Origin: an uncultured Bacteroidales bacterium
GTDB taxonomy: Bacteria; Bacteroidota; Bacteroidia; Bacteroidales; Paludibacteraceae
Assembly (NCBI GenBank): GCA_947164985.1
Contig: CAMUYI010000003.1
Span: 41,378-105,377 of the forward strand
Direction: 5' to 3'
Length of the DNA stretch: 64,000 nucleotides
This document shows positions 3,042 to 33,812 of the stretch, in pieces; within the stretch, counting starts at the first letter, position 1; every line of letters begins with the position of its first letter. The translations under genes were made by a program, and so were the position numbers. Below the pieces are notes generated by a model. It was not told where the DNA came from, did no database searches, and saw nothing but the letters and a program-made list of their open reading frames with translations.

Positions 3042-3112
3042 CACTCGCTTAAGTTAAGGCGAAACCCTGATGAAGGAAATAACAACAAAAATTCATTTAA
3101 TACTTAAAAACT

Positions 3113-4648
3113 ATGGCAAAAAAAGCATTGAACAAGTGGACAGCGCCGAAGAGCGTTATGCCCGAGAGAATCATCCAGTTTGGTGAGGGTAATTTCCTCC
3201 GTGCATTCGTAGATTGGATCGTATGGAACATGGACGCGAAGACGAACTTCAACGGTTCGGTAGTAGTGGTTCAGCCGATCGAGAAGGGTATGGTAGAGTG
3301 GCTCAACGGTCAGGATTGCTTGTATCACGTGAATCTGCAGGGTCGTCTCAAAGGTGAGGCAGTGAACTCGCTGGAGCGTATCGACGTGATCAGTCGTGCG
3401 CTTAACCCGTACTCGCAGAACTGGGCCTTCATGGCATTGGCAGAGCAGCCGGAGATCCGCTTCGTGATCTCGAACACCACCGAGGCAGGTATCACCTTCG
3501 ACGACACATGTAAGTTCACCGACGCACCGGCAAGTTCCTATCCGGGCAAGCTCGTTCAACTTCTCTTCCGTCGTTACAAAACGTTCAACGGCGATCCGAC
3601 CAAGGGTCTGATCTTCATGCCGTGTGAGTTGATCTTCCTGAACGGTCACCACCTCAAAGATTGCATCCGTAAGTACATCGAGTTGTGGAAAGATGATTTC
3701 GGCGCAGACTATGCCGGCTTCAAGGAGTGGTTCGAGAAATACAACTACGTTTGCGCAACGCTCGTAGACCGTATCGTTCCGGGCTTCCCGCGCAAGGACA
3801 TCGCGGAGATCCAAGAGAAAATAGGTTATAACGACAACCTCGTTGTACAGGCTGAGATCTTCCACCTTTGGGTAATCGAGAAGCCGGAGAATATGAGCAT
3901 CGAAGAGCTCGAGGCTGAGTTCCCGGCAAACAAGGCCGGTTTGAACGTGCTGATCGCAGAGAGCGAGAAGCCGTACCACGAGCGTAAGGTGACCTTGCTG
4001 AACGGTCCGCACACTGTGCTCAGTCCTGTTACTTACCTCAGCGGTGTGAACATCGTTCGTGACGCATGCAACCATGAGGTGCTCGGTAAATATATCCACC
4101 TCGTGATGTTCGATGAGTTGCTCGAGACCCTCAACCTGCCGAAGGACGAACTGAAGGCTTACGGCGAGAGCGTTATGGAGCGTTTCAACAACCCGTACGT
4201 AGATCACGCTGTAACCAGCATCATGCTGAACTCGTTCCCGAAATTTGAGACACGTGACCTGCCGGGTCTGAAGATCTACTTGGAGCGCAAGGGTCAACTG
4301 CCGAAGGGTCTGGTTCTCGGTCTGGCTGCTATCATCGAGTACTACAAGGGTGGTACCCGTGCTGACGGTGCTCCGATCCAACCGAACGACGCACAGGAGA
4401 TCATGGATCTACTCAAGGAGCTCTGGGCTACCGGCGACACGCGCAAGGTGGCAGAAGGTGTACTCGGCGCAACCGACATCATCTGGAAAGAGAGCAAAGA
4501 GGACCTCAATAAGATCCCGGGTCTGACCGATATGGTAGAGCTCTACCTCAACTGCATCGAGAAGATCGGTATGCTGGAGACCGTTCAACTGGTACTCGCA
4601 GCCGACAAAGTAGAAGGCCTTGTTTCGAAAATCAAAAGCTTGTTCTGA
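3113..4648 (+). CDS. uxaB: Tagaturonate reductase (altronate oxidoreductase)
   Basis: PERIIQFGEGNFLRAFVDWIV and the FVISNTTEAGI, LVDRIVPGFPR and KVTLLNGPHT blocks match the UxaB/mannitol dehydrogenase family over the full length. Confidence 0.93.
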   Translation: MAKKALNKWTAPKSVMPERIIQFGEGNFLRAFVDWIVWNMDAKTNFNGSVVVVQPIEKGMVEWLNGQDCLYHVNLQGRLKGEAVNSLERIDVISRALNPYSQNWAFMALAEQPEIRFVISNTTEAGITFDDTCKFTDAPASSYPGKLVQLLFRRYKTFNGDPTKGLIFMPCELIFLNGHHLKDCIRKYIELWKDDFGADYAGFKEWFEKYNYVCATLVDRIVPGFPRKDIAEIQEKIGYNDNLVVQAEIFHLWVIEKPENMSIEELEAEFPANKAGLNVLIAESEKPYHERKVTLLNGPHTVLSPVTYLSGVNIVRDACNHEVLGKYIHLVMFDELLETLNLPKDELKAYGESVMERFNNPYVDHAVTSIMLNSFPKFETRDLPGLKIYLERKGQLPKGLVLGLAAIIEYYKGGTRADGAPIQPNDAQEIMDLLKELWATGDTRKVAEGVLGATDIIWKESKEDLNKIPGLTDMVELYLNCIEKIGMLETVQLVLAADKVEGLVSKIKSLF

Positions 4649-29762: not shown

Positions 29763-29772
29763 ATACATTTCA

Positions 29773-29809
29773 CACCCGCTTGCCTCTATTTCCGGAGGCA
29801 GGCGGGGTG
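29773..29809 (+). terminator. GC-rich hairpin after uxaC (possible terminator; no clear U-tract)
   Basis: cacccgcttgcctc ... gaggcaggcggggtg inverted repeat with one bulge. Confidence 0.4.
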
Positions 29810-29875
29810 GTTGTTGCAAAAAATGCAACTTGTCGGAAATAGCGACAGTTTCCAAAACGGAAACAGTTGGTATAA

Positions 29876-30910
29876 ATGCAAAATATGCATCTATACAATA
29901 TGAACGATAAACCCATCGGAAATAGAGGCGAGATAATCATCTATCGTGCGGAAGACAACACGGTACAACTCGATGTGCGCATGGAGAACGAAACCGTGTG
30001 GCTGACAGCTTCGCAGATGGCGATGTTGTTTGATCGAGATGTAAAAACAATTCGTAAGCATATCAATAATGCTTTGCGTGAAGAATTAGATAAATCCTTG
30101 GTTGTCGCAAATTTTGCGTCTACCAAGAAATATGGTCGTAGAGAGGGTTTTACGCAACAGAAAGAAGAAATTATTTATAACCTCGATGTTATAATATCTG
30201 TTGGCTACCGCGTTAAGTCTCAACGAGGTGTTCAATTCCGTCAATGGGCAAACAGAATTCTCAAAGACTACCTCGTCAAAGGTTTTGCCGTCAATGAAAA
30301 ACTCCGCCGTGAGCAGTTGTCGGATCTGCGGCAGTTGGTCCAGATTGTAGGACGGACGGTGCAAAGCAAGGCGGTGGAGAGCGCAGATGAGACCCAGGCT
30401 ATTTTCGATGTCGTTTTGGATTATACGTACGCGCTGGATACGCTCGATAACTATGATTACGAGCGGCTAACCGTCAAAGAGACTACGCCTGAAGAGCGCT
30501 TCCATGCTACATATGAGAATGCCATGCAGACGATAGCTGCGCTGCGTGAGAAGTTCGGCGGTAGCACTTTGTTTGGTAACGAAAAAGACGACTCGTTCAA
30601 AAGCAGTATAGGTCAGATTTATCAGACCTTTGGAGGTTTAGACCTCTATCCGAGTGTGGAGGAGAAAGCAGCCATGTTGCTGTATTTAGTGACCAAGAAC
30701 CACTCCTTTTCGGATGGTAACAAACGTATCGCGGCTACGTTGTTCCTGTGGTTCCTAAACAATAACGGCATTTTATACCGCGAGGATGGCACCAAGCGTA
30801 TAGCAGATAACACGCTGGTCGCTTTGACCCTCATGATTGCCGAGAGCCGCACAGAGGAGAAAGACACCATGGTCAAAGTAGTAGTAAACTTGATAAACCA
30901 AAAGAACTAA
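29876..30910 (+). CDS. RhuM-like N-terminal domain fused to a Fic/Doc (death-on-curing type) domain
   Basis: The N-terminus GEIIIYRAEDNTVQLDVRMENETVWLTASQMAMLF resembles the RhuM family. The C-terminus contains HSFSDGNKRIAATLF, the Doc-type HxFx(D/E)GNKR motif. The exact start is uncertain, with ATGs at 29876, 29885 and 29900. Confidence 0.75.
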   Translation: MQNMHLYNMNDKPIGNRGEIIIYRAEDNTVQLDVRMENETVWLTASQMAMLFDRDVKTIRKHINNALREELDKSLVVANFASTKKYGRREGFTQQKEEIIYNLDVIISVGYRVKSQRGVQFRQWANRILKDYLVKGFAVNEKLRREQLSDLRQLVQIVGRTVQSKAVESADETQAIFDVVLDYTYALDTLDNYDYERLTVKETTPEERFHATYENAMQTIAALREKFGGSTLFGNEKDDSFKSSIGQIYQTFGGLDLYPSVEEKAAMLLYLVTKNHSFSDGNKRIAATLFLWFLNNNGILYREDGTKRIADNTLVALTLMIAESRTEEKDTMVKVVVNLINQKN

Positions 30911-30919
30911 GTAGATGTA

Positions 30920-31810
30920 ATGAAACAAAGTATTCTATCATTATTTATGATTGTTTTCGCAAATGTTGTATTTGCAGAGCAAGGACAGCCCATAACGGGG
31001 ACAGCCTCAGTATTAAGTTCTTCCGGTCGTACTACTTGCGACTACGTACAACTATGGGAGAATGGTCCATTATGGGCGACATTCAATGTAGGTGCTACTA
31101 TTACGGATTATGCAGACCTGCAAGAAGGAGCTGATGCGACACCGTACTACAACAACAACGAGAATGCACCTTTATACAACACGAATAATGTCGGAGGTCT
31201 CTATCCATGGAATAATCCTAACCAGAATGGGAGAAAAAGTAGGTATAATGAGAATGTGAGTGTCGGTATTGCCGATATTGCGACGACACTATGGGGAGAT
31301 GGCTGGCAAACTCCCGGAAAACAATGTTTTGATACACTTATCAATACTGCATATACTACGTGGACATGGTGTAATGGAACTACCGTACAATATACTGAAG
31401 GTTGCACATTGTCCGGGTATAAGGTAACAGGCGTCGGCAATTTTGCAGACGTGTCTATTTTCCTTCCTGCTGTAGGCTATTATGACTGGTGTAGAAGTAA
31501 GGTCGTCAATGCAGGAGGACATGCTGACTATCACACAAGTACTATATCTAAATGGGGTGGTAACTATTCATATTATCACTATTTCCGTGGTAATATGGTC
31601 AGAATATACTTTCAAACCACAAACAACTTCGGTCGTGCCATAAGGGCTATTTATGTTCCTACAGTTTCTACAAATCCTACAGGTATAGACGCTACTAGCG
31701 TAGAAGAGAATAAAGGAAAAGTTATAAAGATATTTCAGAATGGTAGCATCTATATAAAACAAGGAGACAAGACTTACTCAATACAAGGGCAAGCGGTAAA
31801 AATAGAATGA
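30920..31810 (+). CDS. Secreted FISUMP/DUF1566-like domain protein
   Basis: Signal peptide MKQSILSLFMIVFANVVFA. The blocks LWATFNVGA, GGLYPWN, LWGDGWQTPG, IFLPAVGYY and GRAIRAIY resemble the Fibrobacter-succinogenes-major-paralogous-domain family. The C-terminal tail is KIFQNGSIYIKQGDKTYSIQGQAV. Confidence 0.6.
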   Translation: MKQSILSLFMIVFANVVFAEQGQPITGTASVLSSSGRTTCDYVQLWENGPLWATFNVGATITDYADLQEGADATPYYNNNENAPLYNTNNVGGLYPWNNPNQNGRKSRYNENVSVGIADIATTLWGDGWQTPGKQCFDTLINTAYTTWTWCNGTTVQYTEGCTLSGYKVTGVGNFADVSIFLPAVGYYDWCRSKVVNAGGHADYHTSTISKWGGNYSYYHYFRGNMVRIYFQTTNNFGRAIRAIYVPTVSTNPTGIDATSVEENKGKVIKIFQNGSIYIKQGDKTYSIQGQAVKIE

Positions 31811-31827
31811 AAGCGAAGTGTGGCGTA

Positions 31828-31890
31828 CCCGAATTAAATTCTTAACCCACAAGGGGTACGATTATTTCGGGGCTAATGGACGAAGGAGAC
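31828..31890. repeat. REP-like element copy A (hairpin arm split by a 24-nt insert)
   Basis: cccgaattaaattc [ttaacccacaaggggtacgattat] ttcggggctaatggacgaaggagac. The tail GGGGCTAATGGACGAAGG is identical to copy D. Confidence 0.7.
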
Positions 31891-31929
31891 AAACGCTCAA
31901 AAAAGTCGCATAAAGAAGAGAGATAAATA

Positions 31930-32283
31930 ATGAAAGCGAAGTGGGTGAATATAGTGGATAGCTTGCAGGGGAATGTGGATCAGAGACACTATGCACGGCG
32001 GATTCCCGGAAATGGGGAATATGGGGCGGTGTGTGCGAAGCCGGAGTTGAGCAAGAAGACAAAGAAGGCAAAGGCGGAACATCCGACGGCTAAGGCTTTT
32101 GCGGAATTGATGGCAGAGACAAAGGCAATCATGCATGATCCGGTGCGCAAAGCGGAATGGCAGGCACGATACGAGGAGGCACAAAAGAAAGCAAGGAAAT
32201 ATAACAAGCCGATTCAAGGACGGCTGTACGATTATATCAAGCATGAGCTGAGTGAGGAGAGAAAGCAGGGTATTCTCCCGTAG
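31930..32283 (+). CDS. Hypothetical small basic protein (117 aa)
   Basis: ORF only; Lys/Ala/Glu-rich; no family recognised. Confidence 0.4.
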   Translation: MKAKWVNIVDSLQGNVDQRHYARRIPGNGEYGAVCAKPELSKKTKKAKAEHPTAKAFAELMAETKAIMHDPVRKAEWQARYEEAQKKARKYNKPIQGRLYDYIKHELSEERKQGILP

Positions 32284-32304
32284 ATGTCAGGGGGACGTCA
32301 TAGT

Positions 32305-32382
32305 GAGCACCCGATGAGCATCCGATGAGCACCCGATCAGCACCCGATGGAGGAAGGTGGTAAGAAGGTGGATGGAAGGGTG
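32305..32382. repeat. Two adjacent 11-nt tandem arrays (GAGCACCCGAT-like x4, then GGAGGAAGGTG-like x3)
   Basis: Units at 32305, 32316, 32327 and 32338, then 32349, 32360 and 32371; read directly. Confidence 0.85.
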
Positions 32383-32470
32383 AGAGATCGATAATAGAAA
32401 TACAGACGCAAAGTGGCACATCGTGAAGCGGTTACAGATTGTCACTAGGTGAAAAAAAGATACAAAGAAA

Positions 32471-33619
32471 ATGGCAGAACAAGAGGCATGGAAATGGCAA
32501 GAGACGGGAACGGCATGGAGAGGTGTCGGCATTTACCATGTTACGCTGGTTGTGCCAAACAGAGAGAGTTTATTGGGAAGGCTTGTCATTCCTGAGAGTG
32601 ATCCAAAACAGGCAGTGGTGGAAAGGACAGAGATGGGGGATAAGATAACAGAAGAAGCATTGCGTATTAACCATTACTATCCTGAGATAAAGGTAATACA
32701 GCATTGTTTGATGCCTGACCACTTGCATATAATATACTATGTCACCAAGCCGATGACACAAAGTATAAATAATGTAATCCGTAGTTTGTGGCAGGGCTTT
32801 AAGAAAATAGGGCGGGCATATTCTCCGTTGATTTATCCCGAATTAAATTCGGGGCTAACGGACGGAGAGGAAATGGCAAACAAGGACGTTTATCCCGAAT
32901 TAAATTCGGTGTTAACAAACGAAGGGGACATAGCATGCCATGCTATTTATCCCGAATTGAATTCGGGGCTAATGGACGAAGGAGAGCAAGGAGGCAAGGC
33001 GGGAGACAAGGATGGAGGGTATCCATTTCCAATATTCACGGAGCGGCCATTTGTTCGTCCAATGTCACACAAAGGGCAACTACAAACGATGATCCGCTAT
33101 GTACAGATGAACCCGCAGAGGTTAGCAACGAAAAGGTTGATGCCGGGATATTTCAGAGTGCAGCGAGATATAGAGATAGCGGGACAGAAATATAGCGGAA
33201 TTGGGAATATAGGCATTTTGCAGGCAGAGAAGTTCTCACCGGTGCATGTGCGGAGGATTTGGGTGGAAGATGCGGAACAACACGGAGAAGCGACACGGCT
33301 ACGCGACTATATGAACGGTTGTGTATTGGCGGCTCGTAAAGGGGTAGTGATGGTGTCGCCGTTCATTAGTCCGAAAGAGAAAGAGGTATTGGAGGTGTTG
33401 CTGCGCGAGAAACATACCATTATTTATATCGCGGAGAATGGATTTGGCGAGTATTACAAACCGACAGAAGGACTGTTTGAGGCGGTCGCAGAGGGAAGGA
33501 TGTTGATACTATCGCCGTGGCTGCATGATCCGGACAAGCCTCATGTGACACGAGCCGAGTGTGTGGCGATGAATAAAATGGCAGAGGAGATATGCGAGGC
33601 TTTGAACAAACCCGCATAA
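32471..33619 (+). CDS. REP-associated tyrosine transposase (RAYT / IS200-Y1 HUH) -like protein with an internal repeat insertion and a C-terminal extension
   Basis: HUH motif in LMPDHLHIIYYV (His-Leu-His at 32720..32728). Tyr motif MIRYVQMNPQRL resembles the YIHxNP block of Y1 transposases. Between the two motifs lie three 19-aa repeats (YPELNSGLTDGE...). About 170 further residues follow, of unknown fold. Confidence 0.65.
   Translation: MAEQEAWKWQETGTAWRGVGIYHVTLVVPNRESLLGRLVIPESDPKQAVVERTEMGDKITEEALRINHYYPEIKVIQHCLMPDHLHIIYYVTKPMTQSINNVIRSLWQGFKKIGRAYSPLIYPELNSGLTDGEEMANKDVYPELNSVLTNEGDIACHAIYPELNSGLMDEGEQGGKAGDKDGGYPFPIFTERPFVRPMSHKGQLQTMIRYVQMNPQRLATKRLMPGYFRVQRDIEIAGQKYSGIGNIGILQAEKFSPVHVRRIWVEDAEQHGEATRLRDYMNGCVLAARKGVVMVSPFISPKEKEVLEVLLREKHTIIYIAENGFGEYYKPTEGLFEAVAEGRMLILSPWLHDPDKPHVTRAECVAMNKMAEEICEALNKPA
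32832..33002. repeat. Three REP-like units (copies B, C, D) at exact 57-nt spacing inside the RAYT-like ORF
   Basis: Hairpins cccgaattaaattcgggg at 32837..32854, cccgaattaaattcggtg at 32894..32911 and cccgaattgaattcgggg at 32951..32968. Each is followed by a CTAA(C/T)GGACG(G/A)AG-like tail. 57 is 19 codons, so the frame is kept. Confidence 0.9.
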
Positions 33620-33740
33620 AATGCGGGGCTAATAGACGAAGGCCAATCCTCTACAACAATAAGACAAAAGATAACACAGAATAATTCAAACCCGAATAAA
33701 ATTCGGGGCTAATAGACGAAGGACAAATCCTCTACAACAA
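33611..33740. repeat. REP-like copies E and F (80-nt spacing) at and after the RAYT-like stop codon
   Basis: cccgCataaaatGcggggctaatagacgaaggccaatcctctacaacaa and cccgAataaaatTcggggctaatagacgaaggacaaatcctctacaacaa. The stop codon at 33617..33619 lies in the loop of copy E. Confidence 0.9.
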
Positions 33741-33812
33741 AACAATGCAAAACAAAATAAAAAGCAAAACAATAACTAACAACAATATTAACCAATTTAA
33801 TTCATTTAACCT

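Follow-up and report, generated by a model that had tools for sequence, protein, structure and literature searches.

The stretch analysed here (hereafter the window) comprises 64,000 nt of contig CAMUYI010000003.1 from an uncultured Bacteroidales bacterium of the Paludibacteraceae. At positions 32471-33619 it carries a gene for a Y1/HUH protein, and a short repeat unit consisting of a hairpin and a conserved tail occurs before, within and after this gene. We read the locus, with moderate confidence, as a resident system of a new and unannotated subclass that resembles the repetitive extragenic palindromic (REP)-associated tyrosine transposases (RAYTs). In this system a single-stranded DNA (ssDNA) enzyme composed of Y1 and DprA-like domains is accompanied by a putatively cognate low-copy hairpin-tail repeat, and one unit of the repeat is built into the enzyme gene. 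The protein is a remote RAYT relative in which the Y1 domain is fused to the DprA-like domain, and not a canonical RAYT. The internal hairpin is an ancestral feature with a fixed place, a loop that follows helix alphaC, and its conservation is at the level of the nucleotides and not of the peptide. Within the window it has expanded locally, inside a disordered loop, to three copies, and only this number is recent. The features of the gene and the units are as follows.

32471-33619, plus strand: gene for the Y1/HUH and DprA-like fusion protein, 382 aa (open reading frame (ORF) list, family alignment, structure models)
32510-33154, plus strand: N-terminal Y1 HUH domain (IS200/IS605 TnpA or RAYT-like), about residues 14-228, split by the loop (Foldseek; NCBIfam REP_Tyr_transpos, E=4.5e-4)
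32714-32734, plus strand: HUH motif PDHLHII (H84, H86), invariant in alignments A1 and A4
32825-33025, plus strand: loop between helix alphaC and strand beta4 (residues 119-185), predicted to be disordered (pLDDT <50), housing the three internal units
33089-33124, plus strand: catalytic Tyr motif MIRYVQMNPQRL (Y210, N214, P215), invariant in A1 and A4
33155-33616, plus strand: predicted C-terminal DprA-like (Rossmann-type) domain, about residues 229-382 (Foldseek; Pfam hit of the distant member P0160)
31828-31886, plus strand: upstream unit, hairpin broken by a 26-nt insertion in the right arm, tail GGGGCTAATGGACGAAGG intact; loci L066 and L067 have an intact counterpart
32822-32868, plus strand: internal unit 1, the ancestral family-wide element, with core hairpin (32837-32853) and tail (together 32837-32868) in an extended imperfect 'double-foot' palindrome (covariation in alignment A5)
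32894-32925, plus strand: internal unit 2, degenerate (6-bp stem, GGTG), tail TTAACAAACGAAGG (pattern and scanner)
32951-32982, plus strand: internal unit 3, CCCGAATTGAATTCGGGG followed by CTAATGGACGAAGG (pattern and scanner)
33611-33642, plus strand: stop-codon unit, stem CCCGCAT/ATGCGGG (a compensatory variant), with the TAA at 33617-33619 in the hairpin loop (pattern and scanner)
33691-33722, plus strand: downstream unit, 80 nt beyond the stop-codon unit (pattern and scanner)

Repeat units in the window

The ORF with its HUH and Tyr motifs, as described in a first-pass annotation of the window made from the sequence alone, was found at the positions given there. The three internal units translate in frame as YPELNSGLTDGEE, YPELNSVLTNEGD and YPELNSGLMDEGE and are spaced by exactly 57 nt between the two motifs, an arrangement also noted in that annotation and reproduced here by pattern scans and by Tandem Repeats Finder, which reported 32831-32982 as a repeat of period 57 with 2.7 copies, 76% matches and no indels. 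The distance from the HUH to the Tyr motif was said to be roughly doubled; it is indeed enlarged, at 126 aa versus 74 aa in a homologue with one unit, although the factor of ~1.7 falls short of double. Likewise, all six sites of the hairpin-tail element counted in the annotation are present, although the upstream one is interrupted by 26 nt and the second internal one is degenerate.

The consensus of the unit on the top strand is CCCGAAT-NNN-ATTCGGGG followed by CTAAT-RR-AC-RAAG, giving a hairpin and then CTAATGGACGAAGG. The opposite strand reads 5'-...ATTAG and then a GC-footed hairpin, with 5'-CCTTCGTCCATTAG preceding the hairpin. The chance expectation for the unit patterns was 0.00-0.05 matches per window. 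A custom scanner was calibrated on shuffled sequences; it defines a unit as a perfect stem of 6 bp or more, of whatever sequence, with a tail that fits a weight matrix. It detected five intact units in the 64-kb window, all at this locus, so that the remaining ~60 kb had none, whereas shuffled sequences gave 0-1. When the units were folded as ssDNA, each formed a 7-bp hairpin; the energies ranged from -5.7 to -8.0 kcal/mol and the z-scores, which were modest, from -0.9 to -3.3; the structural support comes from covariation, not from folding energy.

Further copies flanking the gene, also pointed out in the earlier annotation, exist in the window and its sub-clade but are absent from most family members: of 75 genes, 3 had a unit at the stop codon, and of 53 genes, 2 had one upstream. 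The window's flanking copies are a sub-clade trait. The stop-codon unit is read through in some homologues as PEYNSGLIDGE or PESDSGLTNEDK, and locus L110 has a single unit at the site of the downstream unit, with the same downstream flank.

Internal units 2 and 3 are separated by a linker that holds a different perfect palindrome, ATAGCATG-C-CATGCTAT (32930-32946), which codes for DIACHAIY and is kept in several relatives.

Conservation of the internal hairpin across the family

Nearly every homologue carries at least one unit of the PELNSG type at the same place, which in most of the family is a fixed 7 residues past a conserved GR. The number of copies varies from 1 to ~6 (1-3 in close relatives), and the length of the loop from ~23 to 93 aa. 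Codon usage within the motif was examined in an unbiased set of 80 genes, fetched via conserved peptides independently of the hairpin. Pro was encoded by CCC in 37/37 cases (background 20%) and Glu by GAA in 52/52 (40%), while Ser was TCG in 46 of 52 (27%) and Gly was GGG in 28 of 36 (23%). In several lineages the hairpin is found in a second frame, where CCCGAAT-GAC-ATTCGGG followed by ACAACAAACGA is translated as PNDIRDNKR, and in some lineage a whole base pair has been lost, the stem being kept and the frame shifted. The stem itself varies among CCCGAAT, TCTGAAT/ATTCAGA, TCCGAAT/ATTCGGA, GCCGAAT/ATTCGGC, CCCGCAT/ATGCGGG and CCGGAAT/ATTCCGG, and the peptide changes of P to S and of G to D or E are the two sides of compensatory base pairs. 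Perfect hairpins of at least 7 bp, with the tail not required, were present in the loop DNA of 58 of 79 genes, corresponding to 5.8 per kb compared with 0.55 per kb in the rest of the genes.

Covariation was evaluated on alignment A5, which covers the first 66 nt past the conserved GR codons in 74 sequences that were not selected for the hairpin. The 7-bp core stem was 92.4% paired with double changes in 5 of its 7 pairs, and the extended 18-pair 'double-foot' hairpin was 84.8% paired, compared with 32-53% in slid controls. The alignment contained 74 double-change cells versus 27.7 in shuffles, and none of 500 shuffles reached 74.

A sister subfamily of 1346 proteins, only 26% identical, also has palindromes at the homologous loop, but these are of unrelated sequence, with arms of 7-15 bp. 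They were seen in 4 of 5 sampled genes and in the L110 paralogue, and a compensatory pair was identified between L195 and L196. The codon bias, the use of two frames, the covariation and the palindromes of the sister subfamily argue against both selection on the peptide and recent colonisation. The proposal of the first-pass annotation that the gene had been colonised by its own repeats therefore does not stand if a recent event is meant.

One gene of the sister subfamily (L197, 1501-2649) has three related perfect palindromes with the core CAGCCAAGCTTGGCTG, at residues 46, 120 and 334. This gene is located directly downstream of an MmeI-type restriction-modification gene.

Fold and conservation of the protein

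Single-sequence profile searches against Pfam, NCBIfam and PDB sequences returned only sub-threshold HUH matches for the window protein. For Pfam Y1_Tnp (PF01797), with a cutoff of 23 bits, the score was 13.5 bits (E=0.08), and for NCBIfam REP_Tyr_transpos (NF047646), with a cutoff of 80, it was 20.1 bits (E=4.5e-4), too low for a canonical RAYT. All 32 family members examined matched NF047646 weakly (best E=4.7e-7), one distant member exceeded the Pfam Y1_Tnp threshold, and a family profile had no match among PDB sequences. As the sequence profiles gave sub-threshold HUH matches only, structure prediction and Foldseek searches were needed.

Alignment-based AlphaFold2 models were built for the window protein (predicted local distance difference test score (pLDDT) 72) and for P0108, a natural homologue of 328 aa with one unit. 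The window model was confident except for residues 119-185, exactly the repeat region, where pLDDT was below 50. The model of P0108 showed the same order of secondary structures, with the homologous loop (residues 115-131) as its sole disordered internal segment. Since the two models share the fold and differ at the loop, the 57-aa expansion is predicted to do no more than extend the disordered surface loop that joins helix alphaC to strand beta4. The N-terminal parts of both models matched the TnpA proteins of ISDra2 and IS608 and the E. coli RAYT-REP complex with a Foldseek probability of 1.00 (PDB 2xm3, 2vjv and 4er8), and the P0108 model aligned to 4er8 with a template modelling (TM) score of 0.61. 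Y1/HUH homology, weak in profile searches, was thus strong at the level of structure with two independent models, and the catalytic residues are invariant.

The first-pass annotation had left a C-terminal extension of ~170 aa unassigned. Foldseek matched the C-terminal ~150 aa to DprA (4ljl, 3uqz and 5mll) with probabilities of 0.96-0.99 and TM of ~0.43, and to the DprA-like protein ShosA (8zva) with E=3e-4; the P0108 model likewise matched DprA of two species at 0.96-0.98. The window protein itself had no match to Pfam DNA_processg_A, and the best score in the superfamily was that of the distant member P0160 (E=1.1e-3, 18.6 bits versus a gathering threshold of 29.6). The DprA-like domain probably binds ssDNA. 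In the literature searched, no paper linking DprA to Y1 enzymes was found.

The family is large in Bacteroidales of gut and rumen: 3185 close hits have no Pfam assignment, and the named members are all 'hypothetical protein' of Bacteroidales or Paludibacteraceae. An exhaustive search returned 1564 clusters at 50% identity with E<=1e-3. The exact 382-aa window protein had no record in the assembly index searched. H84, H86, Y210, N214 and P215 are invariant in distant members with 24-40% identity, and in the unbiased set the HUH motif was retained in 77/80 genes, Y..NP in 80/80 and FTE in 78/80. This conservation suggests that the enzyme is under purifying selection and probably active. PADLOC had no match for the window Y1 protein, P0108 or the L110 paralogue, nor did PHROGs for the window Y1 protein, and the idea of a known defence or phage protein was dropped after these results.

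A dispersed repeat family

A scan with CCCGNATNNNATNCGGGGCTAANNRAC over one genome per GTDB species returned 110 matching stretches, all of them from Paludibacteraceae or uncultured Bacteroidales metagenome-assembled genomes of rumen or gut. Of the 125 matches, 21 fall within a Y1 homologue and 11 others no more than 1.5 kb away from one; the 8-kb loci of the remaining 93 hold no Y1 gene. The repeat is thus not limited to the window's locus, and the local tandem duplication that the first-pass annotation had named as the alternative does not account for it. The positions left free by the pattern were also conserved: R-A-A-G follows the pattern, and of 97 distinct units, 96 have complementary bases at the stem pair that was left free. 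When the tail alone was searched, a perfect hairpin of at least 6 bp preceded 62 of 115 units, with 14 different stems, compared with 1 of 115 in shuffles.

Neighbouring units were arranged as 59 direct and 0 inverted pairs with a modal spacing of ~40 nt, and the inverted doublets that would be expected of a REPIN-like family (REP doublets forming hairpins) were not seen. Arrays exist with units of different stems. In the unbiased set, unit density was 0.58 per kb within 100 nt of the gene and 0.023 per kb beyond 300 nt, a difference of ~25-fold. Rfam had no match in the repeat-rich loci, and no known RNA family therefore explains the units. Neither gene nor unit was found among 2.9 million viral contigs.

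Individual loci have longer arrays. In L108 the Y1 gene is followed immediately downstream by a long array of units in direct orientation, one every 40 nt (~3060-3290, minus strand), L169 has five units directly upstream of its Y1 gene, and one locus in the set holds 22 units.

Units within other genes and recombination boundaries

About a dozen dispersed units lie in frame within large ORFs, mostly antisense to the host ORF. The host genes encode MmeI-family and Type ISP restriction-modification enzymes and DUF3987/BT4734-like proteins. Antisense units read (P/S)SSIS-PE(F/S)NSG, in which PSSIS is the reverse complement of the tail. Some intragenic units had appeared to be inverted relative to the gene, a view that was abandoned: they are palindromic 'double-foot' units whose left flank, PSSIS, is the tail in reverse complement. 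Among MmeI homologues, a unit is situated at the boundary of the methyltransferase and the target recognition domain (TRD) in L069 and at the boundary of the TRD and the C-terminal domain in L006. In L034, exactly the 232-aa TRD between those two sites is gone, with one unit at the junction. The DUF3987 homologues L081 (2472-3746) and L105 (2186-3484) share a site with a unit, but the unit is oriented oppositely in the two, which suggests either an inversion or independent insertions at that site.

The Y1 gene is itself a mosaic. Among homologues, residues 57-118 are either ~95% or 45-50% identical to those of the window protein, while residues 186-382 stay at 91-100%, and the N-terminal module of the window protein is closest to proteins with more distant C-terminal halves. 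This difference in identity on the two sides of the loop suggests that the hairpin loop marks a recombination boundary. A link between allele classes of residues 57-118 and distinct stems was considered and rejected, all three classes in A1 carrying CCCGAAT-type stems.

Several side observations concern the same host genes. TRD identity between L006 and L069 is 55%, with 76-81% in the flanking domains. The DUF3987 units are read as PELNSGLMNKG in one of L081 and L105 and as SSSISPESHSG in the other. In the proteins of ~790 aa with BT4734_N and DUF3987 (L009, L050 and L074), the linkers hold several hairpin types in frame, e.g., ASGLNPDNG and PSDAIRQ, and L008 has an empty site where L009 and L074 carry a unit.

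Genomic context

In close relatives the gene always adjoins kdgK within the gap between uxaC and kdgK, whose products are 96-100% identical at the protein level. This gap (29763-33812 in the window) is a variable island. In the window it contains a RhuM/Fic gene, a 296-aa ORF and the Y1 gene; L110 has there a DUF262 protein and a further Y1 paralogue; and L067, which lacks a Y1 gene, has T5orf172-like and other genes. The genes of the sister subfamily are single and lie among housekeeping genes. Some genomes hold two divergent paralogues, and paralogues within one genome are 26-81% identical. From the fixed synteny, the single genes and the absence from viral contigs, it follows that the distribution is that of a domesticated resident gene and not of an insertion sequence (IS).

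The RhuM/Fic-domain gene (29876-30910) matches the PADLOC candidate system PDC-S23 with E=1.6e-136. The product of the 296-aa ORF (30920-31810) has a hydrophobic, signal-like N-terminus and no match in Pfam, NCBIfam, PADLOC or PHROGs. The remaining ORF of the locus is listed below.

31930-32283, plus strand: ORF117, small and clade-specific, preceding the Y1 gene (ORF list)

ORF117 had no family match in Pfam, NCBIfam, PADLOC or PHROGs. It was considered as an obligatory partner of the Y1 gene and rejected, as homologues stand beside only 8 of 106 Y1 genes. Homologues with 39-97% identity (L005, L022, L085, L086 and L036) have a unit nearby, mostly ~90-270 nt upstream, and this holds even in loci without a Y1 gene within 8 kb. 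A 15-nt direct repeat, AATGAAAGCGAAGTG, at 31806-31820 and 31929-31943 brackets a 123-nt segment with the upstream unit and duplicates the start of ORF117, in an arrangement common to L066, L067 and L036. Its appearance is that of an old tandem duplication, or of a duplication of the target-site type made when a unit was inserted. The gap between ORF117 and the Y1 gene contains, at 32304-32379, an 11-nt tandem repeat (TGAGCACCCGA, 4.2 copies) followed by three copies of TGGAGGAAGG; this could be an array of binding sites or a regulatory region. The stretch 32263-32352 is 90% conserved in L066.

Comparison with known systems

In the TnpAY1 classification of Quentin et al. 2018 (PMC6006769), Bacteroidetes are represented in subclasses 1.2, 2.4 and 2.6. 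Subclass 2.4, found in Cyanobacteria and Bacteroidetes, uniquely has in-frame REPs between HuH and Y, together with 'double-foot' REPs, and the insertions were treated there as tolerated. Di Nocera et al. 2013 (PMC3733652) described intragenic REPs and Rickettsia palindromic elements (RPEs), and noted that REPs can act as RNA elements. The first-pass annotation had regarded a Bacteroidota example with repeats in its gene as unusual, which these publications contradict. In-frame repeats in such genes are already known. The present family fits no listed subclass by motif or length.

The protein shares with the RAYT/TnpA_REP of E. coli (subclass 2.2, 4er8) the Y1 HUH fold, a DHLH-type HuH motif and Y-x3-N-P. 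Both are resident chromosomal genes of low copy number with conserved synteny, and both have small GC-footed hairpins beside the gene and dispersed, with a bottom-strand motif directly 5' of the hairpin (TTAG here, GTAG in REPs). The differences are considerable. The window protein scores far under the family cutoff (20 bits versus 80), has the extra DprA-like domain of ~150 aa, and shows FTE in place of WE/WQ as the motif of strand beta4. The conserved tail has 14 nt (TTAG plus a 10-nt extension), whereas REPs have a GTAG/CGTC tetranucleotide. The units are low in copy, ~0.02 per kb away from the gene, whereas REPs typically exceed 100 per genome and are mostly intergenic, and the arrays are direct with a period of ~40 nt instead of the inverted doublets of bacterial interspersed mosaic elements (BIMEs) or REPINs. 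As in a REPtron, units flank the gene in the window and its sub-clade, but they do so in only a minority of family genes (6-9/80).

Subclass 2.4 (Bertels group 4; PMC6006769) resembles the family in its in-frame REPs between HuH and Y, its variable repetitive insert and palindromes footed on both sides, here ATTAG...CTAAT. Its proteins have NH[IFV]H, WQ and YIxNNP motifs and ~194 aa with no C-terminal extension, whereas the present ones have DHLH, FTE and YVQMNP, 324-430 aa and the DprA-like domain. The insert is located between beta3 and alphaC in subclass 2.4 and between alphaC and beta4 here, where the hairpin is fixed in position, covaries and recurs in the sister subfamily of 26% identity. 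The TnpA proteins of IS200/IS605 elements (IS608 and ISDra2) are the best structural matches, and they recognise ssDNA hairpins in direct orientation on one strand. Their size of 130-150 aa, Y-x3-Q motif, multi-copy mobile ISs and frequent tnpB are features not found here. DprA/Smf and ShosA (4ljl, 3uqz and 8zva) share the fold of the C-terminal domain; in contrast to these, the window protein has no significant sequence match, no PADLOC hit and no Shosta partner, and its domain is fused to a Y1 nuclease.

RPEs and intragenic REPs (PMC3733652) are also small palindromes in frame within coding genes, in either orientation, encoding short surface or linker peptides. The present units differ in phylum and repeat sequence, have as hosts mainly MmeI, Type ISP, DUF3987 and Y1 genes, and are found at domain boundaries. 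The HUH replication initiators encoded by phiX174 gene A and pT181 repC, which are replicon Rep proteins, have the nick site inside their own gene. By analogy, the family may offer a similar case of an HUH enzyme with a recognised DNA structure in its own coding sequence.

Proposed mechanism and alternative explanations

In the reading that we favour, the protein would be a Y1 HUH ssDNA endonuclease/transferase, and the hairpin-tail unit its cognate REP-like repeat. Homology and association suggest that the enzyme acts on the units. It would bind the folded hairpin in transiently single-stranded DNA and may cleave and rejoin beside it, by analogy with TnpA_REP and IS608 TnpA. Strand transfer between two direct units would produce the direct ~40-nt tandem arrays. 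Transfer between units would also give precise deletions such as the lost TRD of the MmeI enzyme, and transfer at the hairpin in its own gene would allow gene modules to be exchanged. The built-in copy may then serve for recognition or autoregulation in cis, or as a joint for recombination. This scheme builds on the observed fold, catalytic motifs, repeat family, covariation, positions, and mosaic and deletion patterns. A more specific version is decidedly improbable in our estimate, namely that the built-in hairpin is a functional cis-site of hairpin-guided cassette exchange, in which the enzyme nicks and rejoins ssDNA at units placed in frame at domain boundaries. Under this version, the unit in its own gene would let the half with the HuH strands and helix alphaC swap between alleles, and other units would bracket the TRD in MmeI and Type ISP enzymes.

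Several points weigh against the favoured reading. The association of protein and unit is one of position and statistics, and adjacent units occur in only 6-9 of the 80 unbiased loci. The repeat is low in copy, with 1-6 exact-pattern copies per genome in ~51 assemblies, unlike classical REPs. The structure models are moderate in confidence (pLDDT 72-75), and the DprA likeness is structural, with the sub-threshold match of P0160 as its sole sequence support. Deletions, expansions and mosaicism could also come from replication slippage or from homologous recombination at short repeats, without a dedicated enzyme. The conservation of the hairpin could mean repeated conversion from dispersed copies or one tolerated site, and not function. 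In about a quarter of the genes (21 of 79), the loop contains no perfect hairpin of 7 bp.

These 21 genes also speak for a tolerated selfish insertion, which we regard as possible though unlikely. It keeps the enzyme and repeats of the favoured reading but holds the internal hairpin to be functionless: units would land preferentially, in cis, near or in the gene of the enzyme, with survival limited to in-frame copies in this one permissive loop, and recurrent insertion or gene conversion would give the appearance of conservation. This is essentially the view of Quentin et al. on subclass 2.4 (PMC6006769). It agrees with a disordered loop that ranges so widely in length, and with the polymorphic in-frame units seen in the linkers of unrelated proteins. 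It is harder to reconcile with the fixed distance past GR in most of the family, with the different palindromes at the homologous loop of the sister subfamily, and with the compensatory changes and the base-pair loss with frame shift, which indicate vertical descent under structural constraint.

An RNA-level element unrelated to the enzyme is, in our assessment, improbable. Here the units would be terminators, mRNA stabilisers or translational regulators that spread otherwise, and the one in the gene would tune its own mRNA. T.G pairs, a further point against the favoured reading, are frequent on the sense strand of the extended stem: UG occurs in 29 sequences at A5 pair 56/111 and in 30 at pair 66/101 (window ~32826/32864 and 32836/32854), where the other strand would show C.A mismatches. 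This hints at the sense strand or the mRNA as the folding strand, and an RNA-level role would fit it better than a DNA enzyme working on either strand. In addition, most flanking units share the orientation of the gene (15 versus 5), one unit lies over the stop codon, many dispersed units are intergenic, and REPs are known as RNA elements (PMC3733652). However, the units have no Rfam match and no T-tract after the hairpins, and those within other genes are mostly antisense to the host ORF. Their 25-fold enrichment at genes of ssDNA-hairpin enzymes, and their presence within such genes in two deep subfamilies, would be hard to explain without the enzyme.

The remaining explanations fare worse. 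An active IS200/IS605-type IS, in which the upstream and downstream units would be subterminal hairpins of a ~1.9-kb 'peel and paste' element comprising ORF117 and tnpA, is largely refuted and has very little chance of being correct. The flanking units are all on one strand, as at IS200/IS605 ends, the Y1 fold best matches ISDra2 and IS608 TnpA, and the 15-nt direct repeat flanks the segment with the upstream unit. Against this, all close relatives have the gene at the same chromosomal site (uxaC...kdgK) between neighbours of 96-100% identity, identical extra copies were not found, and paralogues within a genome are only 26-81% identical. No tnpB is present, the Tyr motif has the RAYT-like class 2 form Y-x3-N-P and not Y-x3-Q, most family members have no flanking units, the upstream hairpin in the window is broken, and gene and unit are absent from the viral contigs. 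A functional protein repeat PELNSG-x-T/M-D/N-G/E-E with an incidental palindrome is refuted. Although the peptide is recognisable in most homologues, with E124 and S127 nearly invariant, codon choice is all but restricted to the synonyms that preserve the palindrome, several lineages use another frame for the same DNA, the P-to-S and G-to-D/E changes belong to compensatory pairs, and the segment is predicted to be disordered. A purely local minisatellite with no repeat family behind it is equally refuted: all copies within the 64-kb window are at one locus, but 110 stretches were found in other genomes, mostly far from Y1 genes, and arrays consist of units with differing stems.

Implications

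Databases name the family only 'hypothetical', and annotation pipelines miss this class of Y1 proteins entirely. The family bears on the role of RAYT-type domesticated transposases and on the spread of REPs. It opens the questions of whether such an enzyme acts on these repeats, whether the intragenic copy is regulatory, and whether repeats drive the loss or exchange of domains in defence genes. The presence, absence and deletion variants in restriction enzymes constitute unusually clean natural experiments, and the putative substrate, a 7-bp hairpin with a 14-nt tail, is simple; a cleavage and strand-transfer assay has been described for TnpA_REP (Corneloup et al. 2021, PMC8266576). Cassette exchange, if true, would mean that an HUH enzyme carries its own recognition site in its coding sequence across a whole superfamily, and it would be a hitherto unrecognised route of protein-domain shuffling in defence and mobile-element genes.

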